Below, piece by piece: positions 1 through 28,460 of a DNA stretch of 32,786 nt. The notes under the pieces were generated by a model that saw only the letters and a list, made by a program, of their open reading frames with translations, did no database searches and was not told the origin of the DNA. This stretch comes from Chthonomonadales bacterium (GTDB lineage Bacteria; Armatimonadota; Chthonomonadetes; Chthonomonadales; Chthonomonadaceae). A program made the position numbers and the translations under genes. Numbering within the stretch: the stretch's first letter is position 1; each line of letters begins with the position of its first letter. The DNA is taken from contig JBBQPO010000027.1 in assembly GCA_038217285.1 (NCBI GenBank), positions 1 through 32,786 of the forward strand. Direction: 5' to 3'.

Positions 1-2
1 CC

Positions 3-884
3 TTTGCGCAGGAGTTCGGAACGGCTGCGTTTGTCGATGCCGCCGCGATGATGCGTGAGACGAAACTCGACTTTGTGGATATCGTGACTCAGCCAGAGTC
101 GCATCGCTCGCTGGTCGAACTTGCCGCCGCGCATCGACTGCCCATTATCTGCCAGAAGCCGCTGGCGCGTGAGCCGGAAGACGCCCAGGCGATGGTCCGC
201 GCCTGCGCCGCAGCGGGCGTGCCGTTCATGGTACATGAGAACTTCCGGTGGCAGAAGCCGATGCGCGCGCTTAAGGCCGAAGCCGCCGGTCTTGGCGAAC
301 TGTTCTTCGGGCGCATCAGTTTCCGCAGCGCCTACGATGTATTCCGTAACCAGCCCTATCTTGCCGAAGATCCCCGTTTCATCATCGCCGATCTCGGCGT
401 GCATCTGCTCGATCTCGCACGATTCTTCTTCGGAGAGGTGGCTGCGCTGACCTGCTCTACGCAGCGCATCCATCCGGCCATCAAAGGCGAGGATGTCGCG
501 ACCATCCTCCTTAAGATGCGGAGCGGAGCCACCTGCCTGGTAGACCTGAGTTATGCCACCCAACTGGAAATGGATCTCTTCCCGCAGACGCTGGTCACGC
601 TCGAAGGTCGCGCCGGATGTGTCACTCTCGGCCCGCACTATGCCGTGACAACAGTTCGCGGTAGGGAAACTACCCACCGTACATTGACACCGCCGCTCTA
701 TTCCTGGAGCCAGCCCGTTTTTGAATTCGTGCAGGACAGCGTGGTGACCGCGCAGCAGCACTGGATCGACTGCTTGCACACCGGCCGGGAGACGGAGACC
801 TCGGGTGCGGATAACCTGAAAACCTTGGATCTGGTCTTTGGATCCTATCGTTCCGCCGAGACCGGGGAGATCTACCATCCATGA
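3..884 (+). CDS. apsD: Gfo/Idh/MocA oxidoreductase, probable D-apiose dehydrogenase (5'-truncated by window edge)
   Basis: Frame is open from nt 3 (FAQEFGTAAFVDAAAM...). Motifs: DIVT..ESH, ICQKPLA, MVHENFRWQ, DLGVHLLDLARF. Stop overlaps the RLP start (ATGA, 881-884). Apiose specificity is inferred from the neighbouring genes. Confidence 0.75.
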   Translation, partial: FAQEFGTAAFVDAAAMMRETKLDFVDIVTQPESHRSLVELAAAHRLPIICQKPLAREPEDAQAMVRACAAAGVPFMVHENFRWQKPMRALKAEAAGLGELFFGRISFRSAYDVFRNQPYLAEDPRFIIADLGVHLLDLARFFFGEVAALTCSTQRIHPAIKGEDVATILLKMRSGATCLVDLSYATQLEMDLFPQTLVTLEGRAGCVTLGPHYAVTTVRGRETTHRTLTPPLYSWSQPVFEFVQDSVVTAQQHWIDCLHTGRETETSGADNLKTLDLVFGSYRSAETGEIYHP

Positions 885-2152
885 GAATTCTAGCCACCTA
901 TCTTCTGGAGACGCCTCACCCGGTGGAGAGGGTAGCGGAGGTCATCGCAGGCGAGCAGTCCTCCGGAACCTTTGTACCGGTTCCGGGCGAAACTCCGGAA
1001 CTCAAGGAGCGCTCCGGGGCGCGCGTAGAACGCATTACGCTGCTGGACTCCACAGACACGCCGAGTCTGCCGGGGTGTCGCGCACCGAAAGGCGCTTCCC
1101 GGCCGCTTCGTTATCAGCGTGCCGAAATGGCGATATCGTTTCCGTACGACAACATCGGCGCAAACCTTCCGACTCTCGTGGCGACGGTCTGCGGCAATCT
1201 TTATGAGTTGAGTGACCATTCCGGCCTGAAACTGCTGGATCTGGAGCTTCCCGACGTCTATGCACAGCACTATCCTGGTCCCCAGTTCGGTATCGACGGC
1301 ACCCGACGGCTTTCCGGCGTGTACGACCGCCCCCTGATCGGCACCATTGTCAAGCCCAGCGTTGGGCTTACCCCGCGCCAGACGGCGGAACTGGTGCGCG
1401 AACTGGTGGAAGCCGGCCTGGACTTTATCAAAGATGACGAGCTGATGGCCAACTCTCCTCACTCGCCTCTCGAGGAGCGGGTACACGCTGTGATGGACGT
1501 CATCAACTCCCATGCAGAGCGTACCGGCAGGAAGGTCATGTTCGCATTCAACATTACCGACGACCTGGACAACATGCTTCGGCATCACGATACCGTACTG
1601 GCCGCAGGCGGCACCTGTGTCATGATCAGCCTGAACAGCGTGGGATACGCCGGCGCCTGCCATCTGCGCCGTCACTGCGCGCTGCCGATCCACGGCCACC
1701 GCAACGGTTGGGGTCTGTACACGCGCTTTCCCTACCTCGGCATAGCGTTTGCGGCCTATCAGAAACTGTGGCGACTGGCGGGTGTGGATCACCTCCACGT
1801 CAACGGACTGCAGAACAAATTCTGGGAGCCGGACGACTCGGTCGTCGCCTCGTTTCATGCCTGCCTGACCCCCCTGTTCCCCGGTGTAGACAGATCCTAT
1901 AACTGTATGCCCGTGGTCGCTTCCGGGCAGTGGGCAGGCCAGGTGCCGGAGTCCTATCTTCGGTTTGGAACCACCGATCTCATGCATGTTGCAGGCGGCG
2001 GTATTATGGCCCATCCTGGCGGACCTGGAGCGGGAGTCGCCTCCATGCGGCAGGCCTGGGAGGCTGCCATGCAGGGGATCGCTCTGGAGACCTATGCCCG
2101 GTCGCACCGCGAACTCCAGGAAGCGATTGCGAAGTTCAGCAGATTGAACTAG
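881..2152 (+). CDS. oiaT: RuBisCO-like protein (form IV), 3-oxo-isoapionate-4-phosphate transcarboxylase/hydrolase or decarboxylase (OiaT/OiaX type)
   Basis: AGEQSSGTF, GPQFGI, GTIVKPSVG (second catalytic Lys replaced by Ser, so not a true RuBisCO), DFIKDDE carbamylation motif, HGHR, GGGIMAHP. Lies next to a DUF1537 kinase and ApnO. The OiaT versus OiaX assignment is uncertain. Confidence 0.75.
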   Translation: MRILATYLLETPHPVERVAEVIAGEQSSGTFVPVPGETPELKERSGARVERITLLDSTDTPSLPGCRAPKGASRPLRYQRAEMAISFPYDNIGANLPTLVATVCGNLYELSDHSGLKLLDLELPDVYAQHYPGPQFGIDGTRRLSGVYDRPLIGTIVKPSVGLTPRQTAELVRELVEAGLDFIKDDELMANSPHSPLEERVHAVMDVINSHAERTGRKVMFAFNITDDLDNMLRHHDTVLAAGGTCVMISLNSVGYAGACHLRRHCALPIHGHRNGWGLYTRFPYLGIAFAAYQKLWRLAGVDHLHVNGLQNKFWEPDDSVVASFHACLTPLFPGVDRSYNCMPVVASGQWAGQVPESYLRFGTTDLMHVAGGGIMAHPGGPGAGVASMRQAWEAAMQGIALETYARSHRELQEAIAKFSRLN

Positions 2153-2180
2153 ACGCGCCCCCTACCGGAAGGACAAAGAG

Positions 2181-3548
2181 TTGACACTGCCCGAAGGCTT
2201 GCTGCTGAGTTTCTACGGAGACGACTTCACCGGATCGACGGATACGATGGAGGTGCTTGCGAACGTCGGACTGCGGACAGCGCTGTTTCTCAGTCCGCCA
2301 ACTCCGGAAGAGCTTGGCCGGTTTGAGGGACTACGGGCCGTTGGCGTCGCGGGGGTCAGTCGCAGCCTGACTCCTGCTGAAATGGATCGGGAGATCCCGG
2401 AGATCTTCGCGCGACTGCACGCATTGAAAGCGCCGCTCTTCCACGTGAAGGTCTGTTCCACCTTCGACTCTGCACCGCACATCGGCAGCATCGGGCACAC
2501 CATCGAAATCGGGCAGCGGCTGTTTCCGTCCGACTTCGTGCCGCTGGTGGTGGGCGCGCCGTCGCTCAGCCGGTTCTGCGTGTTTGGAAACCTGTTCGCC
2601 CGCTCCGGGCCGGAGAGCGACGTGTTTCGTCTTGATCGGCATCCGACGATGTCGCGCCATCCGGTCACGCCGGCGGAGGAGGGTGATCTACGGCTTCATC
2701 TTGCACGGCAGACGACGCATAGCATCGGGCTGGTAGACGTTCTGCAGTTGGATTCAACTGCAGAGCATGTCGCGGCATCACTGCAAAGGCAGGTTCAGGC
2801 GGGCAAGAAAATCGTTCTGTTCGACACGCTTACAAAGGCGCATCTGGCGTCCATCGGGCGACTGTTATGGCAGCGAGCGCGTTCCGCGCCTCCCCTCTTC
2901 ATCGTCGGCTCCTCCGGCGTGGAGTATGCCCTGACCGCATTCTGGAAGGAAGAGGGCCTGCTGGCACCCCTGCCTCGTTTTGCTGTCGGCCCCGTGAAAC
3001 AGATCGCCGTCGTGTCCGGAAGCTGCTCTCCCGTCACCGCGCAGCAGATAGACTGGGCGACAAAGAACGACTTCGCGGAGGTCGCGCTCGATCCGGTACG
3101 CCTGCTCCGTGCGGACGGCGACGGCGCAGCCTTGGAAGCGTACTGCGCGACGGCTCTTGCCGCGATGCAGCAGGGGCGCAGTGTCATCCTACACACCTGC
3201 CGGGGTCCGGAAGACCGCCGGTTGGTGGAAGTAGATCAGGCTTTTCCACACTCTTCCTCCGAGAGGGCGGGACGCCGCCTTGGCATGATCCTCGGGCGCA
3301 TTCTGCGAACGCTTGTGGAGCGAACCGGCATCCGGCGCGCCGTCGTGACAGGCGGCGACACCTGCGGCTACGCCGCACGCGAAATGGGAATCACGGCTCT
3401 TGAGATGGCGGCTCCGATCGCGCCCGGCTCTCCGCTCTGCCGCATCTATGCAGAGAACGCCTCGCTGGACGGAATGGAGATTCTCTTCAAAGGCGGGCAG
3501 GTAGGGCCTATCGACCTTTTCGGCAACATTCTCAATGGATCTCAATAG
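2181..3548 (+). CDS. oiaK: Four-carbon acid sugar kinase family (DUF1537), 3-oxo-isoapionate kinase
   Basis: N-terminal YGDDFTGSTD, KVCSTFDS, GSCSPVT, TGGDT and C-terminal KGGQVG are family signatures. TTG start after GGA RBS. Sits between the RLP and apnO. Confidence 0.85.
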   Translation: MTLPEGLLLSFYGDDFTGSTDTMEVLANVGLRTALFLSPPTPEELGRFEGLRAVGVAGVSRSLTPAEMDREIPEIFARLHALKAPLFHVKVCSTFDSAPHIGSIGHTIEIGQRLFPSDFVPLVVGAPSLSRFCVFGNLFARSGPESDVFRLDRHPTMSRHPVTPAEEGDLRLHLARQTTHSIGLVDVLQLDSTAEHVAASLQRQVQAGKKIVLFDTLTKAHLASIGRLLWQRARSAPPLFIVGSSGVEYALTAFWKEEGLLAPLPRFAVGPVKQIAVVSGSCSPVTAQQIDWATKNDFAEVALDPVRLLRADGDGAALEAYCATALAAMQQGRSVILHTCRGPEDRRLVEVDQAFPHSSSERAGRRLGMILGRILRTLVERTGIRRAVVTGGDTCGYAAREMGITALEMAAPIAPGSPLCRIYAENASLDGMEILFKGGQVGPIDLFGNILNGSQ

Positions 3549-3563
3549 AAGGGAATCAGCACA

Positions 3564-4403
3564 ATGACGACGATCGTGTTATTGGGCGCGGGCGGCAAGA
3601 TGGGCTGCCGTCTCACGGACAACCTGAAGAATCACCCGGAATACGAGATGCTCTACGTCGAGGTGAGCGAGGCGGGGCTCGCCCGGATGGCGGAGAAGCA
3701 GGTATCGCCGACTCAGATGGACACAGCGCTGGCCCGCGCCGACGTGGTTATCCTGGCCGTGCCGGACGCCTTGATCGGCAGGATCAGCGCGGAGATCGTG
3801 CCCGATCTGCAGGCCGGCACGCTTGTCCTGGGACTGGATCCTGCCGCGGGGTATGCGGGCGTGTTTCCGGAACGTGGAGACATCTCGTATTTCGCGGCCC
3901 ATCCCTGTCATCCGCCGCTCTTCATGGAAGAGACGACCCGCGAGGCGCAGACAGACTGGTTCGGAGGTTATCATGCGCGCCAGAGCGTGGTGTGCGCCCT
4001 GATCCAGGGCCCCGAATTCCACTATGTACTGGGCGCAAAGATCGCCGCCGATATGTACGCGCCGATACTGCGCATGCATCGCATCACCGTTGAGCAGATG
4101 GCGATCCTGGAGCCTGGGGTCGTTGAGACGACCTGCGCCTCGCTCGTTACCGCCATGAGGGAGTCCCTCGACGAAGCGATCCGGATGGGCGTTCCGGAAG
4201 AGGCTGCCTGGGACTTTGTCATGGGCCACATTCGCATCGAACTCGCGATCGTTTTCGGCTTTGCCGGTTTTCCGTTCTCCGACGGTGCGAAGCTTGCGAT
4301 TCAAAACGCACAATCGCAGATCTTTCAGCGTGACTGGAAGCAGAATGTGCTTTCTCTGGAAGCGATCCAGCAACAGGTACGCGACATCACGCATAAGAAT
4401 TAG
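3564..4403 (+). CDS. apnO: D-apionate oxidoisomerase
   Basis: Rossmann LLGAGGKMG, VILAVPD, AHPCHPPLF, ALIQGPE, QMAILEPG, GVPEEAAWDF..GH match the ApnO (PGDH_C) family; context agrees. Confidence 0.88.
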   Translation: MTTIVLLGAGGKMGCRLTDNLKNHPEYEMLYVEVSEAGLARMAEKQVSPTQMDTALARADVVILAVPDALIGRISAEIVPDLQAGTLVLGLDPAAGYAGVFPERGDISYFAAHPCHPPLFMEETTREAQTDWFGGYHARQSVVCALIQGPEFHYVLGAKIAADMYAPILRMHRITVEQMAILEPGVVETTCASLVTAMRESLDEAIRMGVPEEAAWDFVMGHIRIELAIVFGFAGFPFSDGAKLAIQNAQSQIFQRDWKQNVLSLEAIQQQVRDITHKN

Positions 4404-4421
4404 GAAAGCGAGATACTCGAT

Positions 4422-7400
4422 ATGACGAAAATGAGCCGATGCCGTCTCCTGGTACCCCGTGTATTTTATCTGGCCGCCATCTGCGTCTTCCTCGTGCAGA
4501 GGATGGCGCCGGCATCCGCACAGATGGTCACGGGGAAGGACATGACGGATTTCGCGAAGGTGTTCAAGCTTGGCAACAGTCCGCAGAGCGATTCGGTGAG
4601 CGCGGATCTGCTCTCCAGCACGATCCCCGGCAATATCCTCTGGCCGAACGAGAAAATCACACTCACGCTCCGCATCACAAATCGCCTCACAACCCCGTTG
4701 GACGCGACCGGCAACCTGGACACTATCCCCTACGGGACAAAGGGGAAACCAGGAGATGTCTGGGTTCCGACCGTAATCAATATTGGCGAACCCCGTTCGA
4801 TGCCTGTGAGTATCAAGCTGGGCGCCGGCGCGACGTCCATGCTCACGATAACGCCCGACATTCCGGCTCGGTTGGGAGCCTACGGCCTCGTTCTGGATCT
4901 CGGGCCGCCGTACGGCAGACGCTTCCTGGTCTCCTGCGTGCGCACATTCAAGCCGGATTCGGCTCGGGTCCAGTATCCGACGCTCAGCCTGGACGATCTT
5001 GGCCCGAAGGTTCTTCAGCGACTGGGAGTCCACGCCATCCGCTGGGGGGTCGGCTATAAACCAACGACGGACGCCGATTTTGAGCGTTGGTACCAGGCGC
5101 AGGGACAGCAGTTGAAAGAGCTTCAGGATTCCGGCGTCACCGTGTTGGCGATGGTAGGCGGAGGAGAGTTCTTCGGACCAACACAGCCGCTCGGACGCCC
5201 GCGCCCGTGGCTCGACGCGAGCGGCACGATGCTCGATACAAAGTTCGACCTCGCCTGGTCTCCTGCCTATGACGAGGATTTCCGGAAGTTCGTACACCGT
5301 TTCTGTGCGGATTACGGCTGGCCCAGGGGACCGATCACCGCCTGCTCTCTGTGGAACGAACCCTGGGAAGGGATCTCGATCTCGGGATGGGGCGCAGATA
5401 TGCTCCGCTACCGGGATATGTATGCCAAGATGGCGGCAGGTGTCGCGGAGGCCCGGCGCGATGCCAGGGTGGATGTGCTTGTCGGCGGCTGCGACTCCTC
5501 CTCGAACGCGCTGGACAAGCTGTTTCCGGATGGAACCGACCGCTTCCTGAACGATTTCGACTTCCTGAGCGTGCACTATCAGGGGATGGCATCATTTGCA
5601 AACTACAAACCCTGGTTGAACCGCAAAGGCCCACGGGGCAGGGTACGGATCTGGGACACGGAGAGTTGGGTGGCCAACACCGACGATCGGGTCGCCGCCG
5701 TTATCGCAGCCAACCGCTCTGCCGGATACGACCGAGCCATGGGTATCTACGGCGGCAATATCCACGAGGGACAAAACGCCTGGTCGGCTGCGGCCGCTGT
5801 CGGCGCAGCACAACATTTCCTGGGTGACCGGAGTTTCAAGGAAATGGTCTTCAAAAACGGCCTTCCCTGGGCGATGGCGTTCGAGGGTCTGAACGGGAAT
5901 GCGGAGGATGGCACGGTCGTTGTCGTCGGTGACCTGGGGGAGGAGTTCGGCGCAGACAATCTGCTCTTCCGAACGGCGCGAGGGGTGACGGAGGTTGCGC
6001 ACAAAGAAGCGATGTACAAACAGCTTGACGCGCTCACCTTCACGGAAGCCGCCTCCCCTGCCCCCGGCGCCGGAGAGCATACTGGGCGGCAACGGTCGCT
6101 TACGCGGCGAGAGGCGCTGCTCAAGGAGATTCAAAAATCCGAGACGCTGTCTCATGCACAGATGCGCGTGGCCGACAGAAATCAGATCGTTCGCGCCTAT
6201 GACTTTTACGGCAACCCGGTCCCGACCAGCGGAGGCTCCCTCGTCATCCCGCTCGACGGGCGCGGTTTCTTCCTGCGTGGCAACGGACAACGGGGCTCCT
6301 TCGCCGCTCTACTGTCCGCCCTCCGAACGTCCCGTGTGGAAGGTATCGAACCGATTGCAACAACGGTTCACGACCTGACAGCGCCTGTCGGGGAGCGTCC
6401 AACGCTGCGCCTCACCCTCACCAATGTGTTGAACCGCGCCGTGCGCGGTACGCTCACGGTCAAGGCAGGCAGCCTGGTTTTGGAACGTAACGTGCAGCCC
6501 CTCGCTTTCGCCGGGAACGAAACAAAGCAGATATCGCTGCGCGTCTCGGGCGGAAAATCGGCTGCTGGCAACACGTATCCGCTGGTGCTGCGGTACGATG
6601 CCGGCAAGGACGGCCTTGCGGTCCATCGAGAAGAGATTCATGCGAACGTCATCGCGAAACGCACGATAACCATAGACGGCAAACTTGACGACTGGATGGG
6701 CGTGCTGCCGCAAACTATCGTCAGCGATGGCGGGTCGCCGACGCTGACAGAAGCGGCGTGGTTCCCGTTCAAAAGCTTCGACGCAAACATGGGACAAGGA
6801 GTAGCCACGGGCTACCTCGCTGCCGACGACACCTACTTCTACTTTGCCGCCAAAATCGCCGACTCCACGCCGGATGGCGGTACACTGCGCTTCGAAACTC
6901 GGGACGACGACGCCTTCTTCTACCCGGCCGTCTCGTATGTTAAACGCCTTAACCATCCCGGAACTGCCCCTGTCAAGGAGTCCGACACCTCCACTCCACA
7001 GCCACTGATATGGCCGGAAGGGATGCGGCGATACTCCTACCGGATGGACCCGATCGTTCCGTCCGGAAACTTCCCTAACTTCGACAACGTGCAGATCGCG
7101 TTCAATGTGCTGCCCCGCGAGCAGAAACGCTTCACGGCCAACCCACCCGGCACCATGCCGGACTATACGATATCCCCGGACACGGACTACGAGTATGCGC
7201 TCAATAAGGTGGCGGAGAAGTACGGAGGCGGCACCGAGATATGGCGACTGAACGCGCCGGGAATGCCGCTCAAGCATTTCTACCCGCGTCAGCCGAAGTC
7301 TCCACTGGACGGTCCCGTCCAGAACGGGAAGCTTGTGGTCGTTCACGACGGAAATACGCGAATCGTCGAAGCGGCTATTCCCTGGTCGGAGATTCCTGAA

Positions 7401-7580
7401 GTCAGAGCGTGCAAAGAGGCGGGGAAGCCGATCAAGTTCTCTTTCCGCATCAACGACAATGCCGGGGTCGGCTGCATGGAGCTTGCACGGGGACGGAGCG
7501 TCTCCAAGCACGGCGGCTCATTCCATGTGGACTGGGTGGAACACTGGGAGAACCAGGTCGAGTTTGGCTGGGGCAAATAG
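4422..7580 (+). CDS. Large secreted clan GH-A-like (GH39-like) glycoside hydrolase with C-terminal CBM9-like domain
   Basis: Signal peptide ending ASA-Q. Putative acid/base motif LWNEPW, SVHY, putative nucleophile IWDTESW. C-terminal ITIDGKLDDW...GYLAADDTYFYFAAKIAD resembles CBM9. Confidence 0.65.
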   Translation: MTKMSRCRLLVPRVFYLAAICVFLVQRMAPASAQMVTGKDMTDFAKVFKLGNSPQSDSVSADLLSSTIPGNILWPNEKITLTLRITNRLTTPLDATGNLDTIPYGTKGKPGDVWVPTVINIGEPRSMPVSIKLGAGATSMLTITPDIPARLGAYGLVLDLGPPYGRRFLVSCVRTFKPDSARVQYPTLSLDDLGPKVLQRLGVHAIRWGVGYKPTTDADFERWYQAQGQQLKELQDSGVTVLAMVGGGEFFGPTQPLGRPRPWLDASGTMLDTKFDLAWSPAYDEDFRKFVHRFCADYGWPRGPITACSLWNEPWEGISISGWGADMLRYRDMYAKMAAGVAEARRDARVDVLVGGCDSSSNALDKLFPDGTDRFLNDFDFLSVHYQGMASFANYKPWLNRKGPRGRVRIWDTESWVANTDDRVAAVIAANRSAGYDRAMGIYGGNIHEGQNAWSAAAAVGAAQHFLGDRSFKEMVFKNGLPWAMAFEGLNGNAEDGTVVVVGDLGEEFGADNLLFRTARGVTEVAHKEAMYKQLDALTFTEAASPAPGAGEHTGRQRSLTRREALLKEIQKSETLSHAQMRVADRNQIVRAYDFYGNPVPTSGGSLVIPLDGRGFFLRGNGQRGSFAALLSALRTSRVEGIEPIATTVHDLTAPVGERPTLRLTLTNVLNRAVRGTLTVKAGSLVLERNVQPLAFAGNETKQISLRVSGGKSAAGNTYPLVLRYDAGKDGLAVHREEIHANVIAKRTITIDGKLDDWMGVLPQTIVSDGGSPTLTEAAWFPFKSFDANMGQGVATGYLAADDTYFYFAAKIADSTPDGGTLRFETRDDDAFFYPAVSYVKRLNHPGTAPVKESDTSTPQPLIWPEGMRRYSYRMDPIVPSGNFPNFDNVQIAFNVLPREQKRFTANPPGTMPDYTISPDTDYEYALNKVAEKYGGGTEIWRLNAPGMPLKHFYPRQPKSPLDGPVQNGKLVVVHDGNTRIVEAAIPWSEIPEVRACKEAGKPIKFSFRINDNAGVGCMELARGRSVSKHGGSFHVDWVEHWENQVEFGWGK

Positions 7581-7618
7581 CCCGGCCACACAGTGGACCG
7601 GAGAAGGAACAGAACCCA

Positions 7619-8644
7619 ATGAAGAAGATCTTGATCATCGGCGGTACCGGACTGATCAGCACCCCGATGACCCGCCTTCTGCAGGCACGCGGTGATCAGG
7701 TAATGGTCTACAATCGCGCGAAGCGGTCCCAGGACTTGCCGGACAGTGTAGGGCAGATGATCGGTGACCGCAACGATTACCCTGCTTTCGAGGCTGCGAT
7801 GCGGGAAGCCGAGCCGTTCGACGTCGTTATCGATATGATCTGCTATAAGCCGGGCGATGCCGAGAGTCTCTCCCGCGCGTTTGCCGGACGCGTGGGACAG
7901 ATGATCGTCTGCAGCACCATCGATGTCTACGCGAAACCGGCGGGCCGCTACCCCATCACCGAAAGGGAGCCGCACCGACCGCCACCCTGGGAATACGCTC
8001 AGAACAAGGCAGCCTGCGAGGCGATCCTGCAGCGTGCGCACGAGCGCGGTGACTTCCCCGTGACCATCCTCCGCCCTGCCCACACCTACCATGACGGCGG
8101 CACCCTTCTGCACAGCTTTGGCGGTGGCACCACGTATCTCGACCGGCTTCGCAAGGGCAAACCGATCGTAGTGCATGGCGATGGAAGTTCGCTCTGGGCC
8201 TCCTGCCATGCAGACGACGTGGCCCGCGCGTTTGTCGAAGCGGCGGGCAGTGCCCGTACATTCGGAAAGTCGTACCATACGGCGGGCGAAGAGTGGATGA
8301 CCTGGAACCGAATGCATGAGATCGTGGCCGAGGCGCTGAACGGGCCACCTCCCACGTTCGTCCATATTCCCACCGATGTTCTTGCGAGCATGGCCGGGCG
8401 CGCCTTCATCTGCCGCGTCAACTTCCAGTACAACAACATTTTCGACAACGCGGAAGCGCGCCGTGACCTGGAATTTCGCTGTACGATGCCGTTTGCGGAG
8501 GGCGCACGGCGTGTCGTCGCCTGCCTGCAGGCGACCGGCCGAATAGCGAACAGCGACGACGATCCCTACGACGACCGCATCATCGATACATGGCAGCGTC
8601 ATCAGGAACAGTTAAGGGACCTGGACATTGTCACGACAGAATAG
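7619..8644 (+). CDS. NAD-dependent epimerase/dehydratase (extended SDR)
   Basis: Likely start ATG 7619 (MKKILIIGGTGLIS) after GAAGGA; CSTIDVY, YAQNK (YxxxK), ILRP, HADDVA. The ORF-track start at 7409 overlaps the upstream gene. Confidence 0.85.
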   Translation: MKKILIIGGTGLISTPMTRLLQARGDQVMVYNRAKRSQDLPDSVGQMIGDRNDYPAFEAAMREAEPFDVVIDMICYKPGDAESLSRAFAGRVGQMIVCSTIDVYAKPAGRYPITEREPHRPPPWEYAQNKAACEAILQRAHERGDFPVTILRPAHTYHDGGTLLHSFGGGTTYLDRLRKGKPIVVHGDGSSLWASCHADDVARAFVEAAGSARTFGKSYHTAGEEWMTWNRMHEIVAEALNGPPPTFVHIPTDVLASMAGRAFICRVNFQYNNIFDNAEARRDLEFRCTMPFAEGARRVVACLQATGRIANSDDDPYDDRIIDTWQRHQEQLRDLDIVTTE

Positions 8645-8672
8645 AACTGCGAAAGTAGAACGGAGACGAAAC

Positions 8673-9989
8673 ATGCGTTTGCAAATCAGTGACAACCGGC
8701 GCTTCCTGGTGTTCGAGGATGGCGCGCCCTTCTTTTACCTGGGCGATACTGCCTGGGAACTGTTCCACCGCCTGAACCGCGAAGAGGCCGATCTCTATCT
8801 GCAGGCGCGCGCCGCGCAGGGCTTCACGGTCATTCAGGCCGTCGTGCTTGCCGAGCATGAGTTTGCAGCGCCGAACCCTTATGGCGACCATCCCTTGCTC
8901 GGCAGCGACCCGGCGCAGCCGAACGAAGCCTATTTCCGGCACGTGGACTTTATCGTTGATCGGGCTGCGGAACTCGGGATGTTCGTCGGAATGCTGCCTA
9001 CGTGGGGCGATAAGTGGAACAAAAAGTGGGGCAGCGGGCCGGAGATCTTCACCCCGGAAAATGCGCGTGCCCTTGGGACATGGCTGGGGCGGCGGTATCG
9101 GGATCGGCCCATAATCTGGATACTTGGCGGCGACCGCCCCGTCGATACAGATCTGCACCGTGAAATCATTCGTGCGATGGCGGCAGGACTGACGGAGGGC
9201 GACGGAGGGCGGCATTTGAAGACCTTCCACCCCATGGGCGGGCAAACCTCGTCTCCGTATTTCCACACTGAAGACTGGCTGGACTTCAATATGTACCAGA
9301 CGGGCCATGCTCGTAACACCGCTTGCTACAACCTTCTCGGGGCCGACTACGCGCTGACACCTATCAAGCCCTGTATGGACTCGGAACCGGGATATGAGGA
9401 CCATCCGAACGGCTTCAAGGTCGAAAACGGCTATCTGGACGACTATGATGTGCGCAAGGCGGCCTACTGGGACCTGTTCGCGGGGGCGCATGGCCACACC
9501 TACGGCTGCCACGATATCTGGCAATTTCTCGACACAAGCCGGTTTCCAGCGGTCACCGCTGCTCGCACGCCGTGGCAACAGGCGCTCCACCTACCGGGTG
9601 CGGAACAGATGCGGTATGTGCGCAGACTGCTCGGCTCACGTCCATATCTAGGTCGAATCCCGGATCAGGCTCTCCTGCTTTCCGATCCACGCGAGGGTGG
9701 CGACCATGTGCAGGCGACCCGTGCCCAAGATGGCGGCTACGCATTTGTCTATATCCCAACCGGCAAGCCGGTTACGGTAGACCTGAAATTGCTCTCCGGA
9801 AAACTGGTTACGGCCCACTGGTTCGATCCGCGCACGGGCACGACAGATCGGATCGGCGAGTTCTCAACCCAAGAAGCCACCGAGTTTGTGCCGCCTGCCG
9901 ATGGTCCGGACTGGGTGCTCTGCCTCGACGACAGCGCGCGCGGATTCAGCGCTCCCGGTAAGGAGAAGGAGAAGCGGAAAATTGCCTGA
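8673..9989 (+). CDS. GH140 family apiosidase (DUF4038 + C-terminal collagen-binding-like domain)
   Basis: Start ATG 8673 after GGAG. Motifs: PFFYLGDTAWELF, GFTVIQAV, IIWILGGD, TFHP, WLDFNMYQTGH, DSEPGYEDHP, GHTYG, WFDPRTG, DWVL. No signal peptide. Confidence 0.9.
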   Translation: MRLQISDNRRFLVFEDGAPFFYLGDTAWELFHRLNREEADLYLQARAAQGFTVIQAVVLAEHEFAAPNPYGDHPLLGSDPAQPNEAYFRHVDFIVDRAAELGMFVGMLPTWGDKWNKKWGSGPEIFTPENARALGTWLGRRYRDRPIIWILGGDRPVDTDLHREIIRAMAAGLTEGDGGRHLKTFHPMGGQTSSPYFHTEDWLDFNMYQTGHARNTACYNLLGADYALTPIKPCMDSEPGYEDHPNGFKVENGYLDDYDVRKAAYWDLFAGAHGHTYGCHDIWQFLDTSRFPAVTAARTPWQQALHLPGAEQMRYVRRLLGSRPYLGRIPDQALLLSDPREGGDHVQATRAQDGGYAFVYIPTGKPVTVDLKLLSGKLVTAHWFDPRTGTTDRIGEFSTQEATEFVPPADGPDWVLCLDDSARGFSAPGKEKEKRKIA

Positions 9990-10150
9990 ACTTGGATGGT
10001 ATACTGAAAACGCGTTAGCCTCTACAAAAAAGTGTCGGTTAGTGGATCCCTATGCGTCTATAATAGTTGAAGGCTCAAAGATCGCCTGCAAGGCGACGCC
10101 ATGAGCCTATCCGGACCGAATACGAGTAGAGAATCATGGAGGTACTATCT

Positions 10151-10474
10151 ATGCGACGTGATAAATTTCAGAATTCTCTTCGGAGGTTGCGGACGCCCGC
10201 TGTACTTGCCTTCTCAAAAGCGAGAACTCTTGAGAAGGTAATTGAAGGGGCATGTACAGTTTCTGCCTTTTTTATCGCTGCACGGATTACTGGAACCATG
10301 GGGTTGTTTAGGGGTTTCTTCAACCAACATGAGCCCGCAATTCTCCATACCCTGTTAGTGTCGATGGTTTTCTATCCCCTTCTATCGGTGATAGCGGACA
10401 TGGCACTCGTTTTCTTTCGCGAACTGTTTGCGTCGAATTCAGCAGATCCGAAATTGCCTGACCATGTCAGATAA
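10151..10474 (+). CDS. Small hypothetical membrane protein (about 107 aa, about 2 TM)
   Basis: GGAGGT RBS at 10138-10143 before ATG 10151; TATAAT at 10059-10064; two hydrophobic segments; visibly AT-richer than flanking genes. Confidence 0.5.
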   Translation: MRRDKFQNSLRRLRTPAVLAFSKARTLEKVIEGACTVSAFFIAARITGTMGLFRGFFNQHEPAILHTLLVSMVFYPLLSVIADMALVFFRELFASNSADPKLPDHVR

Positions 10475-10526
10475 TAACAGTGGGCTATCAAGTCCCTAAC
10501 CGACATTTGGGTCGTTGCCCGGCAGG

Positions 10527-11693
10527 TTACCGCGTGGGGAGCAGGTCAGGGCGCTCTTGAACGGTGAGGCGCACTTCCCGGGGGTGAATTTCGCCAGGAC
10601 GCAGGACACGCAGAACGGCCGTCTCTCCATTATGGTGGTCGGTGATAGCCTCGCGCACATCGCGCACGTCACCGATAGGCTTGCGATCCACGGAGAGGAC
10701 GATGTCGCCTTCGCGGAGACCGGCAGAGGCGGCAGGCGTCGCCGGAACGATCCTGTTGACGACCGCGCCGGTATCGGGAGGCAGACCTAGCTCCTGCGCG
10801 CGTTCGAAGGGAACGGGATCGAGGCCGACGCCGATCCAGGCCTGACGCGGTTGGCGGAAGGTGGTCTTGCCGGTCGCGATCAGCTCCCGCGCAACGCGGC
10901 GCACCGTATTGGCCGGAAGCGCGAAGCCGAGGCCGATACTGCCGCCGTTCGGACCGGAACTGAGAATGGCCGTATTGAGACCGATCAACTGGCCGTTGAT
11001 GTTGGCGAGCGCGCCGCCCGAGTTGCCACGATTGATGGGCGCATCCGTCTGGATGGCGCCGTCCAGATTCCGGCCTTCGTCCAGTTGCAGGTTGCTGCGG
11101 TTGAGGGCGCTGACGACGCCGACGGTGACCGTCGAGCCGAGGCCAAGCGGGTTGCCGACCGCGATCGACCACTCGCCGACCTGCACCTGATCGGAGTCGG
11201 CGAGGTGCGCGATGGGCAGGTTGTGGGCGTCTATCTTCACGACCGCCAGGTCGGTATGGGCGTCTCTACCGACGAGATGCGCATAGTACCAGGCCCCGTC
11301 CGGAAGCGTGACCCTGGTACGGTTCGCGCCCTCGATGACATGGTTGTTGGTAACGATGTAGCCGTCGGGAGTCAGAATCACGCCGGAACCCTTGCCACGC
11401 ACCTCCATACCCGTGGTAAGCGGCCCGCTATTCGCCTCGTCCGGGCGTACCTTGCCCACCGTATCGATGTTGACGACCGCAGGTGCGATGCGTTTCACGG
11501 CCTCGACAATGCGGTTATCGCCGATACTGGTCACGAGCGGAGGCTGTTCGAGCAGATGCAGGGCGCGACGTTGCGCTTCGGTCGGGTTGTCCGCACGGGA
11601 GGCGTAGAGATGCAAGAGCGTCCCTCCCGCCCCGATACCCATCATAAAAATTACCAAGGAACCCAGAACACGTCGCCACGTCATCTCGCGCAC
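10527..11693 (-). CDS. htrA: HtrA/DegS-family trypsin-like serine protease with single PDZ domain
   Basis: N-terminal TM anchor; triad motifs TNNHV, DLAVVK, QTDAPINRGNSGG; one C-terminal PDZ domain; GGAGG RBS before GTG. Confidence 0.92.
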   Translation of the reverse strand: MREMTWRRVLGSLVIFMMGIGAGGTLLHLYASRADNPTEAQRRALHLLEQPPLVTSIGDNRIVEAVKRIAPAVVNIDTVGKVRPDEANSGPLTTGMEVRGKGSGVILTPDGYIVTNNHVIEGANRTRVTLPDGAWYYAHLVGRDAHTDLAVVKIDAHNLPIAHLADSDQVQVGEWSIAVGNPLGLGSTVTVGVVSALNRSNLQLDEGRNLDGAIQTDAPINRGNSGGALANINGQLIGLNTAILSSGPNGGSIGLGFALPANTVRRVARELIATGKTTFRQPRQAWIGVGLDPVPFERAQELGLPPDTGAVVNRIVPATPAASAGLREGDIVLSVDRKPIGDVRDVREAITDHHNGETAVLRVLRPGEIHPREVRLTVQERPDLLPTR

Positions 11694-12256: not shown

Positions 12257-13510
12257 CTAGGCCTCTTGTTCGTGAAGCGGCGTCGGGAGTCCTTCTGCGG
12301 TCGGCGCCCCGACATCGATCCGATGGCCCATCTTCTCCTGCTTGGTCTTTAAGTACCGATAGTTGTAAGGGTTGGGCGCGATGGGAATCGGCACCCATTC
12401 GACGATCTCCAGACCATACCCTTCGAGACCCGCGACCTTTTTGGGGTTGTTAGTCATGAAGCGCACCTTTTTCAAACCGATGTCGGCCATGATCTGCGCC
12501 CCGATGCCGTAGTCGCGCAGGTCCGGTTTGAAGCCGAGCATCTCATTGGCCTGCACGGTGTCCGCGCCTTCGTCCTGCAGGGCATACGCCTTTAGCTTGT
12601 TGATGAGGCCGATCCCGCGTCCCTCCTGTTCGAGGTAGATGAGCGCGCCTTTACCCGCCTCGTCGATCTGCTGCAGCGCATGATGCAACTGACTGCCACA
12701 GTCGCAGCGCAGGGAGTCGAGCAGATCTCCCGTGACGCAGGAGGAGTGGACCCGCACGAGCGTCGGCTCGCCATCGGTGACATCTCCCCGCACGAACGCA
12801 ACCGCCTGGTAGGGCGCGACGCTAGCCTCGTAGGCGTGTACGGTAAACTCTCCGAAGTGCGCGGTCGGCAGTCGGGTCGTGGCGACACGCTCGATCAGGC
12901 GCTCCTTTCGGCGGCGATACGCGATCAGGGCGGCGACCGTGATGATCTTCAGATCGAACTTCCGGGCCACGCCCTCAAGCTCGGCCATCCTCGCCATCGT
13001 CCCGTCGTCGCCGACGATCTCGCAGAGCACCCCCGCTGGCTGAAATCCGGCCAACCGCGCCAGATCGACGCAGGCTTCCGTATGTCCCGCCCTCCGAAGC
13101 ACTCCCCCCTCTTCGGCACGCAGCGGGATCACATGGCCGGGTCGGGCTAGATCCTCTGGCTTCGCCTCCGGGTCCACGAAGACCTTCACCGTCAGCGCGC
13201 GGTCGTAGGCGGAGATTCCGGTGGTAGCGCCGCTCAGAGCGTCCACCATTTCGCCCATGGCGGTGCCATGGCGCGCGGTGTTGTTCTTCACCATCATCGG
13301 AATCTGCAGTTCCTTCAGGCGTTTGGCGGTCGTCGCCACACAGGGGATGCCCCGGCCATGTTTAATGATGAAGTTCATGGCTTCCGGCGTACAGGTCTGC
13401 GCCGCCATGATGAAGTCGCCCTCGTTTTCGCGATCTTCGTCGTCCGCGACGATGACGATTTTGCCCTGACGTATATCTTCGATCGCTGCCTCTATGCTGC
13501 TGAATCCCAT
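12257..13510 (-). CDS. ribBA: Bifunctional DHBP synthase / GTP cyclohydrolase II
   Basis: Start ATG 13510 ([16 protein letters not shown]) after AGGTGAG. DHBP synthase motifs [23 protein letters not shown]; cyclohydrolase motifs [28 protein letters not shown]. Confidence 0.97.
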
Positions 13511-13570
13511 CCCGTTCTCACCTTCTTCCGCCGCCCCTCTCCGCCGAAGAGGCCGACTGTCGTAACCGTT

Positions 13571-13576
13571 ATTGTA
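13571..13576 (-). promoter_or_regulatory. Putative sigma70 -10 element (TACAAT) for ribBA-ribH
   Basis: Minus-strand GGTACAAT about 60 nt upstream of the ribBA start; no clear -35. Confidence 0.35.
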
Positions 13577-13718
13577 CCTTACGCACAGCGGCCAGGAAGG
13601 AACTGCCGTCGACTGATTCTGGCAGGAAGTCCATGCTTGTTCGTTGAACTTGCCGTGAGAGCTTCGTTCGGACGACAGAGCACGGCGTCGTACAGAAGAG
13701 TCAACCACAGGAGGCAGC

Positions 13719-14303
13719 GTGTTTCTCAGCTTTACACCGGCGGGCGTCGAATTCGCCTACCGGCGCGGTGTCTTTCCCATGCATAACCACTGGACCGCAG
13801 AGATCGAATGGTATCGTCCGGATCCGCGGACGATCCTTCCTTTGGAGTCGTTTCATATTTCGCGGTCGCTGGAGAAGACTTTGCGCCAGGGCATTTTCGA
13901 GGTCCGATTTAACACCGATTTCGAGGGGGTCATGCGGGGATGCGCGGATCGCGAGGAGGGAACCTGGATCTCCGAGGAGTTCATTAAGATCTACGGCGAA
14001 CTCCACCGCATCGGCAAGGCGCACAGTGTCGAGGTTCTGCTGGACGACCGTCTGGTCGGAGGAACGTATGGCATCGCGCTGGGAAGCGCGTTTATGGCGG
14101 AGAGTATGTTCCACTATGAGACGGACGCATCGAAGGTAGCGCTGGCATCCCTGGTGGCCCGGTTGAAAGCTCAGAACTTTACTCTGCTCGACGTTCAGTA
14201 CCTGACGCCGCATCTGGCAAGGTTCGGCGCAATCGAAATTCCCTTTCGTGACTACTATGATCGCCTGCGCCGAGCGCTGCGCCGAGACTGTCAATTCGGA
14301 TAA
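13719..14303 (+). CDS. aat: Leucyl/phenylalanyl-tRNA--protein transferase
   Basis: [71 protein letters not shown]. Confidence 0.95.
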
Positions 14304-14419
14304 GACTTAGAGTCAGGCACGTTCTGATGGAACCGAAACCCATCTCGCTCTGTCCTCTCCCTGAGAGAACGACTGCACGAGCGGCAATTTCAAGTTAGAG
14401 AACCCCCGGGGAGAAAATC

Positions 14420-14737
14420 ATGATAGGCGAGACGGAGAGACCGGAGACAGCAGACGAATTAAAAGAAGACACGAATACAGGAGCCGAGTTAGGTGGAATT
14501 GGCGGGGCTGTAGCAGGCGCCGTTGCCGGATCGATGGCCGGTCCAATCGGCACCATTGCGGGCGCGGTGATAGGCGGCATCGTTGGCGCGGTCACCAGCA
14601 AAGCGGCCGTCGGCGTCATAAACAGAATCGAACAGGACCACTCCGTGAGCGGTGCCGAAGGTTCGACGGACGCCCGTCCGGAGGAGGAGCCACAAGAGCT
14701 CGTGAACCCTGTCCCATCGACTCGAGAGGATGCCTGA
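14420..14737 (+). CDS. Small glycine-zipper membrane protein
   Basis: GAELGGIGGAVAGAVAGSMAGPIGTIAGAVIGGIVGA between acidic tails; GGAG RBS; TGATG coupling to the next gene. Confidence 0.7.
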   Translation: MIGETERPETADELKEDTNTGAELGGIGGAVAGAVAGSMAGPIGTIAGAVIGGIVGAVTSKAAVGVINRIEQDHSVSGAEGSTDARPEEEPQELVNPVPSTREDA

Positions 14738-15465
14738 TGCGGGTCTACCGGATTGAGGAGGGAATCTGGCAGATCTCTCTGGCGTGGAGTAACGTCTGGC
14801 TCTTATGGAATGGAGATGACGCTGCTCTCATCGATACGGGGCTTCAGGCGGATCGAAACGAACTGTTGGAGGCCCTGCGGCAGATAGGAGTAGCGGAGAC
14901 GCAGGTACGCACGGTATTGCTGACCCACGCGCATTGCGATCACGGCGGAAACGCCGCCTATTTCGCGGCCCGATCCGCGACCACTCGTCTCCATAACGCC
15001 GAGTTACCGTTTCTCGGCACACCGCGTCGAACGTACATCCCTACCGGTACGGCGCTCCTGACGCGTCCCCATACCGCCCTGGCTTTCGCGATCGGTGAAG
15101 CGCGTTTTCCGGTCGAGCGTGTTGCGCGTGGGCTTAGCGGCCTCGCTGCGGACGATTACATCGACGTTCCGGGAGGCCCGCTGCGTGTCATCGCCAGTCC
15201 AGGTCATACGCCGGGCCACATCGCCTTTTTCCGAGAGCGAGACGGCGTGCTGTTCAGTGGCGACGCCGTGTTGAATGTCATCCCAATTCGGCGCGTCGTC
15301 GGGCTGAGCCTGCCCATCCAATTCCTCTCCTCGGACTGGGAGCAAGGCAAATCCAGCGCCCGCCGTCTGGCCGAACTCGCGCCGCGGCTCCTGCTCGCTG
15401 GGCACGGCCCGCCTCACCAGGAGAACACTGCCGAGCGACTGCAGGAGTGGGCCACAACTCTGTGA
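14737..15465 (+). CDS. MBL-fold metallo-hydrolase
   Basis: LIDTG, THAHCDHGG (HxHxDH), PGHTPGH, LFSGD, AGHG. Confidence 0.9.
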   Translation: MRVYRIEEGIWQISLAWSNVWLLWNGDDAALIDTGLQADRNELLEALRQIGVAETQVRTVLLTHAHCDHGGNAAYFAARSATTRLHNAELPFLGTPRRTYIPTGTALLTRPHTALAFAIGEARFPVERVARGLSGLAADDYIDVPGGPLRVIASPGHTPGHIAFFRERDGVLFSGDAVLNVIPIRRVVGLSLPIQFLSSDWEQGKSSARRLAELAPRLLLAGHGPPHQENTAERLQEWATTL

Positions 15466-27619: not shown

Positions 27620-28285
27620 ATGAAAACGCATTTCAAAGTCGGGGTAGCTCTTTACGGGCTGTCGATAGGTGGGCTGATGGTCACGTCTTCGGCACAGGCA
27701 CAGGGGTTCCTTGTCGGCGCGTATCTCTTTGCAGCGGATGGCAGTGGGAATACCACGAGCACCACCTATCAGTACGATACCAATTCCAGCAACAACACGT
27801 TTGCACTGCTGGTCAATGGGGGAGGCAAGAGTTTTAGCCAGGCGCTCACCTTGGGAAACAATGCTTTTACATTCGCCCCCGGTACGTCCCCGGTGACACT
27901 CAACAACACTGGCGTTCTGGGACTCTTCTTCAACACGACGAACACTCCCTACAATCCGAGCATTACGGCAAGAACTCCTGATCTGGTGATCGCAAGACCA
28001 GTGAACGGGGCAGGGTTTGCCTTCGTGCCGGCAGCGGGTACAAACCTTAACAACTATCGGTACTCTGGCACTTCGTCCGCCAACGGCCTGAGTACGTTTA
28101 CACTCGGTGCGGACACCGTGTCAATTTCAAGCTTCACGGTCACATCGACGCCGAACGGCTCTTTTACTCTGAACCTTACAGGTCCGGCAGCACCCACTAC
28201 GCCGGAACCTGGTACCGTTGGTCTTCTGGCCGGATTGATCACGTCCGGAGTCGTGTTCATGCGGCGACGCGCTGTCAAGAAATAG
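27620..28285 (+). CDS. PEP-CTERM (exosortase-sorted) surface protein
   Basis: Signal peptide (AQA), Ser/Thr/Asn-rich body, TPEPG + TM helix + RRR..KK tail. Confidence 0.9.
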   Translation: MKTHFKVGVALYGLSIGGLMVTSSAQAQGFLVGAYLFAADGSGNTTSTTYQYDTNSSNNTFALLVNGGGKSFSQALTLGNNAFTFAPGTSPVTLNNTGVLGLFFNTTNTPYNPSITARTPDLVIARPVNGAGFAFVPAAGTNLNNYRYSGTSSANGLSTFTLGADTVSISSFTVTSTPNGSFTLNLTGPAAPTTPEPGTVGLLAGLITSGVVFMRRRAVKK

Positions 28286-28302
28286 CCTCATGAGGCCTTA
28301 TG

Positions 28303-28350
28303 ACGACGGGAGCCGGGTAGAGTAAAATCTACCCGGCTCCCGTCGTTTAT
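28303..28350 (+). terminator. Intrinsic terminator (19-bp perfect stem)
   Basis: ACGACGGGAGCCGGGTAGA (28303-28321) / TCTACCCGGCTCCCGTCGT (28328-28346), followed by TTAT, just after the PEP-CTERM stop. Confidence 0.75.
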
Positions 28351-28419
28351 GGTGCTGATCCGGTATTGTCATGCTTTCGTGGTGCTGAACGTCCACGAGG
28401 TGAGCTATGCCTGACACGC

Positions 28420-28460
28420 CGAAAGAAGGCTTCCTGCACAATGCAGGAAGCCTTCTTTCG
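28420..28460. terminator. Second perfect 19-bp hairpin, probable bidirectional terminator
   Basis: CGAAAGAAGGCTTCCTGCA-CAA-TGCAGGAAGCCTTCTTTCG, between convergent genes. Confidence 0.7.

Follow-up and report, generated by a model that had tools for sequence, protein, structure and literature searches.

A putative apiose-utilization operon joining a GH140 homologue to a RuBisCO-like protein pathway in a Chthonomonadales bacterium

The stretch of DNA analyzed here (the window, 32,786 nt) is base 1-32786 of contig C27 (JBBQPO010000027.1) in the genome of a Chthonomonadales bacterium of the Armatimonadota (assembly GCA_038217285.1, 6.2 Mb in 459 contigs, 95% complete, hereafter G000). It opens with a gene cluster that is probably an accessory apiose-utilization operon, in which the release of apiose from apiosides is coupled to an oxidative route that passes through a RuBisCO-like protein (RLP). 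Apiose is a branched pentose found in plant cell walls, where it occurs in rhamnogalacturonan II (RG-II) and in the apiogalacturonan of duckweeds and seagrasses, and in many plant glycosides. Its known catabolic routes were found via transporters and not via glycosidases. The biochemistry is known in kind, the locus being a variant of a known apiose system in a soil or sediment bacterium. Our argument is built on what was directly observed: the order and spacing of the genes, the families they match, their conserved motifs, the folds and the neighborhood statistics.

Gene content and limits of the cluster

Seven open reading frames (ORFs) occupy positions 3-9989 of the window, all on the + strand; the start codons of two of the genes were refined before coordinates and gaps were calculated. 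The first gene, cut at its 5' end by the contig start, encodes a Gfo/Idh/MocA oxidoreductase (Gfo; 3-884; PF01408, PF22725 and PF02894). It is followed by the RLP (881-2152; PF00016, 2e-72), a DUF1537-type four-carbon acid sugar kinase (2181-3548; PF07005 and PF17042), a D-apionate oxidoisomerase of the ApnO (PGDH_C) type (3564-4403; PF16896, 1.7e-54), a secreted protein of 1052 aa without a sequence-family match that we call BIG (4422-7580), an extended short-chain dehydrogenase/reductase (SDR) of the NAD-dependent epimerase/dehydratase family (7619-8644; PF01370, 8.6e-19) and a homologue of the beta-D-apiosidases of glycoside hydrolase (GH) family 140 (8673-9989, with an alternative TTG start at 8628; PF13204, 4.6e-120; PF12904, 6e-27). 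A first-pass annotation of this DNA had described seven co-directional genes that overlap or are separated by at most about 40 nt, and both statements are borne out by the ORF list, by the Pfam and NCBIfam matches and by measured gaps of -4, 28, 15, 18, 38 and 28 nt.

As the window starts at base 1 of C27, the operon is cut off there. Its upstream part was located on contig C145 of the same genome (locus L110, 12370-15463) by a tblastn search of the whole genome with the apiose cluster of Rhizobium that served as our reference (see below). The end of C145 carries a GntR/FCD regulator (12370-13065), a 698-aa ApnL-like ORF (13071-15167; NCBIfam NF049900) and, from 15172, the first ~60 codons of the Gfo gene, which overlap the window's first codons. 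This overlap extends over ~70 nt with mismatches and the last ~110 nt of C145 then diverge, suggesting strain microdiversity at the junction. In an independent public run (X3), a contig ~92% alike bridges C145 position 15355 straight into the window sequence. Because the end of C145 overlaps the window start and the junction is bridged by an independent contig, the full unit comprises nine genes, in the order GntR, ApnL-like, Gfo, RLP, kinase, ApnO, BIG, SDR and GH140, preceded by pyrG on the opposite strand. The genes of the first-pass annotation were as described, but the locus is longer than the seven it had listed, with the ApnL-type lactonase and the GntR regulator lying on the adjoining contig, and one of the seven, the SDR, had been given no interpretation.

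Downstream of the operon, a 112-aa ORF is followed by HtrA, ribH and ribBA on the - strand, genes of unrelated functions. Promoter and terminator scans gave site counts at the level of shuffled sequence; the eight terminator-like sites observed in 1-10600 (7.9 expected from shuffles) all lie upstream of 9989 and none was seen after this position. Rfam and tRNA scans of the window returned no match. Mis-binning of C27 was considered and rejected, HtrA beside the operon being 86-92% identical in 4/4 congeners with the HtrA-ribH-ribBA synteny kept.

Predicted functions of the encoded proteins

The PGAP-annotated cluster on the Rhizobium ruizarguesonis plasmid NZ_CP071679.1 was used as the reference. 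It encodes NanR, OiaX (oiaX, 781.5 bits), a kinase, a PGDH_C protein, a ribose-type ATP-binding cassette (ABC) transporter, a Gfo/Idh/MocA protein and ApnL (1044.9 bits, above cutoff). Clusters of this Rhizobiaceae type reportedly correspond to the oxidative D-apiose route 1 of Carter and colleagues (Nat Chem Biol, 2018). The nine-gene unit shares with it the Gfo/Idh/MocA, ApnL-type, PGDH_C/ApnO, DUF1537 kinase and RLP families as well as a regulator of the GntR/NanR type, and identities to its proteins are 50.6% for the RLP (PGAP-named OiaX), 45% for the kinase, 48% for ApnO and 52% over 282 aa for Gfo, the Rhizobium counterpart of which adjoins ApnL. Unlike the Rhizobium cluster, the locus has no ABC transporter, includes in addition the GH140, the secreted GH39-like protein and the SDR, and belongs to the phylum Armatimonadota; in addition, its RLP and lactonase fall under the NCBIfam equivalog cutoffs, whereas the kinase is under the cutoff in both clusters. 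PMC13753588 attributes four apiose/apionate pathways, three of them with ApnO, to Gerlt and co-workers in 2018 and indicates that new cluster types with a lactonase and other dehydrogenases exist.

A cluster on the Cupriavidus plasmid NZ_CP080769.1 was also compared. It comprises an SDR dehydrogenase, an alpha/beta hydrolase, an RLP, a kinase, a tripartite ATP-independent periplasmic (TRAP) transporter, NanR, a PGDH_C protein, enolase and pyruvate kinase. The kinase and ApnO are common to both, and the Cupriavidus RLP, named merely 'family protein' by PGAP, is closer to the window protein (57.8% identity) than Rhizobium OiaX is. The Cupriavidus cluster differs in having another dehydrogenase and hydrolase and a TRAP transporter, and in lacking a GH140. 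It may be of the route 2 (OiaT) type.

Judged by family matches and identities such as these, the Gfo/Idh/MocA protein is a candidate D-apiose 1-dehydrogenase, the DUF1537 kinase a candidate 3-oxo-isoapionate kinase and the RLP a candidate enzyme acting on 3-oxo-isoapionate-4-phosphate. The 698-aa ORF on C145 matched the model of the D-apionate lactonase ApnL (NF049900) with an E value of 1.4e-90 and from position 4 to position 593 of the 595-position profile. ApnO aligned with PDB 5t57 (5.7e-79 over residues 4-276), and His113, His116 and His222, the metal and base histidines of oxidoisomerases of the PGDH_C type, are present in the alignment. The same three positions were mutated in AaApnO (PMC13753588).

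The best solved match of the RLP was PDB 3nwr, entitled 'a rubisco-like protein' (5.5e-132), and a KDDE motif is found at residues 184-187. In a FastTree phylogeny the named Rhizobium OiaX falls outside the clade of the window RLP, on a branch that is long and weakly placed; the window RLP clusters with the RLP of a genome of the same family (G018) and with a public contig labelled Chthonomonadales (SH-like support 97). The RLP locus of one 'same phylum' genome was identical to a public contig labelled Armatimonadota, and the tree thus places the organism in the Chthonomonadales of this phylum. As to which of the two RLP chemistries (OiaX or OiaT) applies, no named OiaT reference was present among the homologues of the window or Cupriavidus RLP, which bore generic names, with the plasmid collection naming OiaX alone, and the NCBIfam search returned no OiaT model. 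When all ORFs of 42 ApnO-bearing loci were clustered (see below), no conserved neighbor resembling triose-phosphate isomerase, RpiB or an aldolase was found; this lack does not separate the two chemistries, because the named Rhizobium oiaX cluster is also without such genes.

Two further observations concern the RLP family. Haloarchaeal plasmids (Halalkalicoccus, Natronosalvus, Haloarcula, Haloterrigena and Halomarina) encode RLPs that are 56-58% identical to the window protein. In addition, a well-supported RLP-kinase clade of 24 rows, from Bacteroidota, Verrucomicrobiota subdivision 3, Opitutaceae and Planctomycetota, is without ApnO within 10 kb (L045, L055, L061, L062, L068, L076-L080, L083-L088, L091, L092, L094-L097, L100 and L101), and the substrate of this pair may be another acid sugar.

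The assignment of the last gene to GH140 was confirmed at the level of domains and sequence similarity. Its product scored 401.5 bits against PF13204 (cutoff 26.5) and 93.8 bits against PF12904, the C-terminal beta-sandwich, and closely matched a solved apiosidase, PDB 8t9w ('GH140 apiosidase derived from a lignocellulolytic enriched mangrove metagenome'; 3.3e-146 over 19-443), as well as the Bacteroides GH140 structures 3kzs/5msy (2.2e-77). It is the sole PF13204 gene over the cutoff in the source genome. The catalytic domain starts ~4 residues past Met16 of the longest ORF, so the protein has no signal peptide. Thus, the enzyme shares the PF13204 and PF12904 domains with the beta-D-apiosidases 8t9w and BT1012 (from the RG-II loci of Bacteroides thetaiotaomicron, 5msy/3kzs) but, unlike them, is without a signal peptide and sits inside a catabolic operon.

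Signal peptides are present in the GH140 orthologues of the Acidobacteriota, Pirellulales and Myxococcota clusters, and the same clusters hold a ribose-type ABC transporter (solute-binding protein, permease and ATPase). This design fits a scheme in which apiose is set free outside the cytoplasm and the liberated sugar is then imported. The Chthonomonadales GH140 genes (window, L113, L114 and L032) have neither a signal peptide nor a clustered transporter. Specific to the lineage are a signal-peptide-free GH140, the lack of an ABC transporter at the locus and the addition of the SDR and of BIG, the secreted GH39-like protein. In a number of relatives (G008, G015, G036, G029, G012, G022, G023 and G010) the GH140 match contains one or two in-frame stops (TGA, TAA or TAG), which may be either alignment overhangs into adjoining genes or real disruptions.

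BIG had been put down as an unknown glycoside hydrolase. Its signal peptide marks it as secreted and a clan GH-A fold of the GH39 type with a CBM9-like module is predicted by the structural model, but membership of a sequence family was not recovered. No Pfam family was found for the whole protein or for the barrel at E values up to 10, nor any NCBIfam match, nor any PDB sequence match at E up to 1; it showed no Pfam PF01229 or CAZy-type match that would place it in GH39 by sequence, and its C-terminal module reached 15.3 bits against Pfam CBM9_1 (E 0.02), under the cutoff of 23.4. The protein starts with a Sec-type signal peptide, as do 15/15 homologues from relatives, with a conserved QMVTG next. 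An AlphaFold2 model built from a 16-sequence alignment (pLDDT 73, pTM 0.72) predicts, after the signal peptide, a beta-sandwich, a GH39-like (beta/alpha)8 barrel, further beta-sandwich domains and the C-terminal CBM9-like module. The top Foldseek match of this model was the GH39 enzyme 5jvk (E 2e-11). With VIA-align, model residues 60-621 superposed on 5jvk_A (GH39, B. cellulosilyticus) with Z 20.1 and a root-mean-square deviation of 3.5 over 410 aa; the GH39 enzyme PslG (4zn2) gave Z 15.4, and residues 742-1052 matched the CBM9 structures 7nwn and 1i82 with Z 14.8 and 14.4, respectively. Sequence identity in these structural matches is 12-16%.

In clan GH-A enzymes an NEP motif after strand 4 supplies the acid/base Glu, and the nucleophile is a Glu that follows strand 7. 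The 16 BIG homologues all have N312-E313-P314 and T413-E414-S415, which lie at beta-strand ends in the model, so that, by the clan rule, E313 and E414 are candidates for the acid/base and the nucleophile. The modelled fold, with NEP after a beta-strand and a Glu ending a later strand, resembles GH39/clan GH-A (5jvk, 4zn2) and CBM9 (1i82, 7nwn); the lack of a sequence-family match, the ~1050-aa architecture and the small size of the family set BIG apart from both. In the clusters of Atlas look-alikes, part of the members have a CBM9_1, GH42, GH39 or Glyco_hydro_cc domain, with CBM9_1 in 23-94% of members. Among 1.84 billion proteins the family counts 664 representatives at E of at most 0.001 and 248 at E of at most 1e-30. 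BIG is therefore best described as a candidate new glycoside hydrolase, secreted and, on the evidence of its model, like a retaining glycosidase, that falls outside GH39 by sequence. A 975-aa paralogue was seen in two genomes (L023, 2390-13249, G039:C63; L024, 3466-15100, G033:C74) between GH95-like and GH2 genes; the context, which also includes an MGH1-like GH, resembles a polysaccharide utilization locus for glycan degradation and is without apiose pathway genes.

The SDR has the nucleotide motif GGTGLIS and Y126-x3-K130. Its PDB matches were weak (best 1e-7) and its Atlas look-alikes were generic epimerase/dehydratase clusters. UDP-apiose/xylose synthase and uronate dehydrogenase, two activities considered for this protein, were not among the 10 listed PDB matches, which does not exclude them. 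The SDR adjoins GH140 in G018, G008, G289, G010 and the Chthonomonadales locus L032. A second copy at G000:C123:6286-7275 is 60% identical to the operon SDR and matches the resident copy of the congeners, whereas the operon SDR shares 75% identity with its counterpart in another genus (G018). Such a pattern of copies fits a gain of the operon as a block.

Distribution of the operon and of the GH140 linkage

The RLP was found in 10/301 genomes of a phylum sample, G000 included, with 5/17 in the family of the window and 2/15 in the sister family. Neither RLP nor ApnO was found in the four congeners (0/4; 73-98% complete), and in two of them no operon genes were seen in the stretches of 15 kb and 10 kb that adjoin HtrA. 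The congeners keep the HtrA-ribH-ribBA synteny without the operon genes and the operon is therefore accessory. Its closest copy lies in another genus, in G018 (L021), where all seven genes occur in the window order with 65-83% protein identity. Rearranged versions were observed in four more genomes of the family. In G289 (L113) the order is GntR, ApnL, Gfo, RLP, kinase, GH140, SDR and ApnO; G008 (L114) has the same order, with no ApnL-like match in the locus; G010 (L018) has Gfo, RLP, kinase, ApnO and GH140, with BIG 2 kb away and contig C82 holding the SDR and the remainder of GH140; and in G020 the operon is split across two contigs (L118 and L020). A Chthonomonadales contig (L032) carries Gfo, RLP, kinase, ApnO, GH140 and SDR. 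As the order repeats in another genus and rearranged versions occur in four more family genomes, the seven-gene arrangement is beyond chance.

The added genes are distributed differently. Among 41 relatives from the order, GH140 orthologues were found in 28 and SDR orthologues in 29, mostly unlinked from each other, and BIG in 19 at E of at most 0.001 (G000 included, two of the 19 being weak partial matches) and in 0/4 congeners. PF13204 genes directly flank BIG in three sister-family genomes that have no pathway genes there (L011, L012 with two such genes, and L015). This adjacency gives independent, if circumstantial, support to a functional link between BIG and GH140.

The wider linkage was explored by a scan of genome contigs with the window RLP. 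Of the 411 relatives that it gave, the 80 best loci, at 55-72% identity and in many cases on short contigs, were analyzed. They came from Verrucomicrobiota, Armatimonadota, Acidobacteriota, Planctomycetota, Latescibacterota, Bacteroidota, Gemmatimonadota, Myxococcota, Actinomycetota, Chloroflexota and Alpha-/Betaproteobacteria. By tblastn, these best 80 of 411 loci contained the kinase in 66 cases, ApnO in 36, Gfo in 20, an ApnL-like protein in 18, a GH140 of at least 45% identity in nine (one more at 44.8%), a distant GH140 paralogue in 10, the SDR in one and BIG in none. The 36 ApnO-bearing loci were combined with six from relatives for the ORF clustering mentioned above; the resulting 42 loci are partly related to each other, and counts among them are not independent events. 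Their neighbors were the kinase (37), RLP (35), an ABC ATPase (17), Gfo (16), the ApnL-like protein (16) and a solute-binding protein (12).

This survey of apnO, RLP and GH140 neighborhoods supports the linkage that the first-pass annotation had proposed, with a GH140-family gene lying within 10 kb in 17/42 of the ApnO-bearing loci and 14 of these 17 being at least 44.8% identical to the window GH140. The close GH140 genes are in clusters labelled Blastocatellia, Acidobacteriota, Bryobacteraceae, Pirellulales, Myxococcales and Chthonomonadales. The linkage is not special to the lineage of the window and recurs in at least four phyla (Acidobacteriota, Planctomycetota, Myxococcota and Armatimonadota). 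A literature search, which did not cover Carter et al. 2018, where figures or supplements may show GH140/DUF4038 neighbors, found no description of GH140 encoded with ApnO/RLP genes, or of apiose or GH140 in Armatimonadota or Chthonomonas. Two contigs labelled Heliomicrobium (L058 and L059) hold a GH140-RLP-kinase-ApnO cluster; their RLP nests within Blastocatellia sequences and the label is doubtful. On the Rhizobium reference plasmid, ~15 kb downstream of the oiaX/ApnL cluster, a gene with DUF5060, PF13204 (weak, 71 bits) and DUF5605 domains (L109 85-1605; NZ_CP071679.1 167684-169204) follows a second, CUT1-type ABC transporter. A distant GH140-like enzyme may feed the apiose pathway in Rhizobiaceae too.

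Proposed route and competing explanations

In the route that we propose, the GntR/FCD regulator would control the operon, and the secreted BIG, with its GH39-like barrel and CBM9-like module, would act outside the cytoplasm, trimming a plant glycan or glycoside that bears apiose. Small apiosides would be taken up by a transporter encoded outside the locus, and the signal-peptide-free GH140 would liberate D-apiose in the cytoplasm. The Gfo/Idh/MocA dehydrogenase could then convert D-apiose to D-apionolactone and the ApnL-like lactonase convert this to D-apionate, which ApnO would turn into 3-oxo-isoapionate and the DUF1537 kinase into the 4-phosphate. The RLP would cleave this phosphate, acting either as a decarboxylase that yields L-erythrulose-1-phosphate (OiaX) or as a transcarboxylase/hydrolase that yields 3-phosphoglycerate and glycolate (OiaT). 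The SDR might perform an NAD(P)-dependent step tied to GH140. That one operon couples apiose release to the ApnO/kinase/RLP route was the central proposal of the first-pass annotation, and it agrees with a homologue for every step and with the recurrent neighborhoods; the choice of RG-II or apiogalacturonan as substrates is doubtful given a GH140 without signal peptide and the lack of GH28 and polysaccharide lyase family 1 (PL1) genes described next.

Several observations weigh against the proposed route. Neither GH28 nor PL1 (PF00544 pectate lyase) was found in the 95% complete source genome, which argues against a pectin backbone as the substrate. The genome does encode GH78 (13 matches over cutoff), GH127 (6 matches) and GH95 (2 matches), and because these are present while GH28 and PF00544 were not found, the organism more likely scavenges side chains, oligosaccharides or plant apiosides than degrades the pectin backbone. 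No transporter genes are encoded in the locus. The best NCBIfam matches of the RLP (OiaX NF042437, 530.7 bits) and of the kinase (OiaK NF042436, 505.4 bits) are under their cutoffs of 700, and the ApnL-like score of 304.6 bits is under the equivalog cutoff of 750. As the kinase of the named Rhizobium oiaX cluster scores lower still against OiaK (477.6 bits, also under the cutoff), sub-cutoff scores in the window are no evidence against membership, for which these proteins are candidates. GH140 and the SDR occur in a far larger share of genomes of the order than the RLP does in the phylum sample, so their linkage to the pathway is optional. As for BIG, most of its loci are without apiose genes, the tblastn search found it in 0/80 RLP loci of other lineages, and the pLDDT of its model drops below 50 at residues 313-326, right at the NEP motif; its link to apiose is circumstantial. 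Finally, PMC13753588 describes ApnO as promiscuous in vitro, with D-erythronate, D-ribonate and other C4-C6 sugar acids oxidized, and the acid-sugar part of the locus could therefore serve other substrates.

This promiscuity, seen with AaApnO, leads to an alternative in which the acid-sugar module (Gfo, ApnL-like protein, ApnO, kinase and RLP) would serve D-ribonate, D-erythronate or another branched sugar, GH140 would have another specificity and apiose would not be the substrate in nature. Such a model would also accommodate the OiaX, OiaK and ApnL scores under the equivalog cutoffs and the use of the RLP-kinase pair in other contexts, as in the 24-row clade without ApnO within 10 kb. We regard it as unlikely in view of the strong match of the window GH140 to the solved apiosidase 8t9w and of an enzyme set that mirrors the Rhizobium cluster, with its PGAP-named OiaX and an ApnL above cutoff; moreover, GH140-family genes are found beside ApnO in 17/42 loci, compared with 16/42 each for the dehydrogenase and the lactonase. 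An RLP that is a true CO2-fixing RuBisCO, in a locus unrelated to sugar catabolism, has the PF00016 catalytic domain and the KDDE motif in its favor. Against it, the window RLP reaches none of the cutoffs of bona fide RuBisCO (forms I-III), scoring 236.1 against rubisco_III (cutoff 497.45), 224 against PRK04208 (438) and 151.6 against PRK13475 (489), far under its OiaX score, its best solved match is a RuBisCO-like protein, and a DUF1537 kinase flanks it in 66/80 related loci. We give this possibility almost no weight.

Another alternative retains GH140 and the five pathway enzymes as the functional unit and treats BIG and the SDR as passengers that were brought in by rearrangement in Chthonomonadaceae and have unrelated substrates. 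The genes lie close together (gaps of 18 and 38 nt) and no promoter-like site separates them, which speaks against it, as do the position of BIG beside PF13204 genes in three further genomes, independent of the pathway, and the SDR-GH140 adjacency kept in G018, G008, G289, G010 and L032 though other genes were rearranged. It is nevertheless compatible with the lack of BIG from RLP loci outside the order and its separation from apiose genes in most carrier genomes, with SDR orthologues that in the 29/41 relatives are mostly far from GH140, with the second SDR copy on C123 and with a gene order that varies among G000, G010, G020, G008 and G289. On balance we give it a small but appreciable chance of being correct, and we continue to favor an operon in which all nine genes contribute to apiose utilization.

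We also considered an extension of the apiose-utilization model, which is tentative and which we hold to be possible rather than probable. BIG would found a new family of glycoside hydrolases specialized in apiose-containing glycans or glycosides of plants, Chthonomonadales would follow an 'import, then cleave' strategy with BIG outside the cell and GH140 and a dedicated SDR inside, and the linkage would mark apiose consumers. If true, this would contrast with the design of Acidobacteriota and Planctomycetota, where a periplasmic GH140 is combined with an apiose ABC transporter, and the GH140-ApnO-RLP linkage would mark the consumers of apiose left by RG-II degraders such as Bacteroides and Flavobacterium. 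According to the preprint 10.64898/2026.03.13.711244, B. thetaiotaomicron and most Flavobacterium strains release D-apiose from RG-II but secrete it or do not use it, so that it stays in the medium for other microbes.

The linkage of GH140 to the oxidative pathway could serve as a genomic marker for complete apioside consumers among soil and sediment bacteria, and it would assign a physiological context to the 8t9w-like GH140 subfamily. Two uncharacterized enzymes, a small GH39-like family and the SDR, are nominated for study, and a defined operon is added to a phylum, the Armatimonadota, in which few pathways have been assigned. The walls of duckweeds are rich in apiogalacturonan. Armatimonadota are reported to have been isolated repeatedly from duckweeds and to promote their growth (PMC12524902 and PMC6308005), and this association could be an ecological pointer to apiose use among Armatimonadota.

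The remainder of the window showed a few further features. An 805-aa WD40-repeat protein is encoded at 25033-27450. Positions 28001-30000 have a GC content of 0.51, against ~0.61 elsewhere, and contain an FkbM-type methyltransferase gene (29503-30489, - strand) and two ORFs that matched no family; this segment may be foreign DNA. A subtilase with fn3 and malectin domains (30889-32784) continues past the window end.

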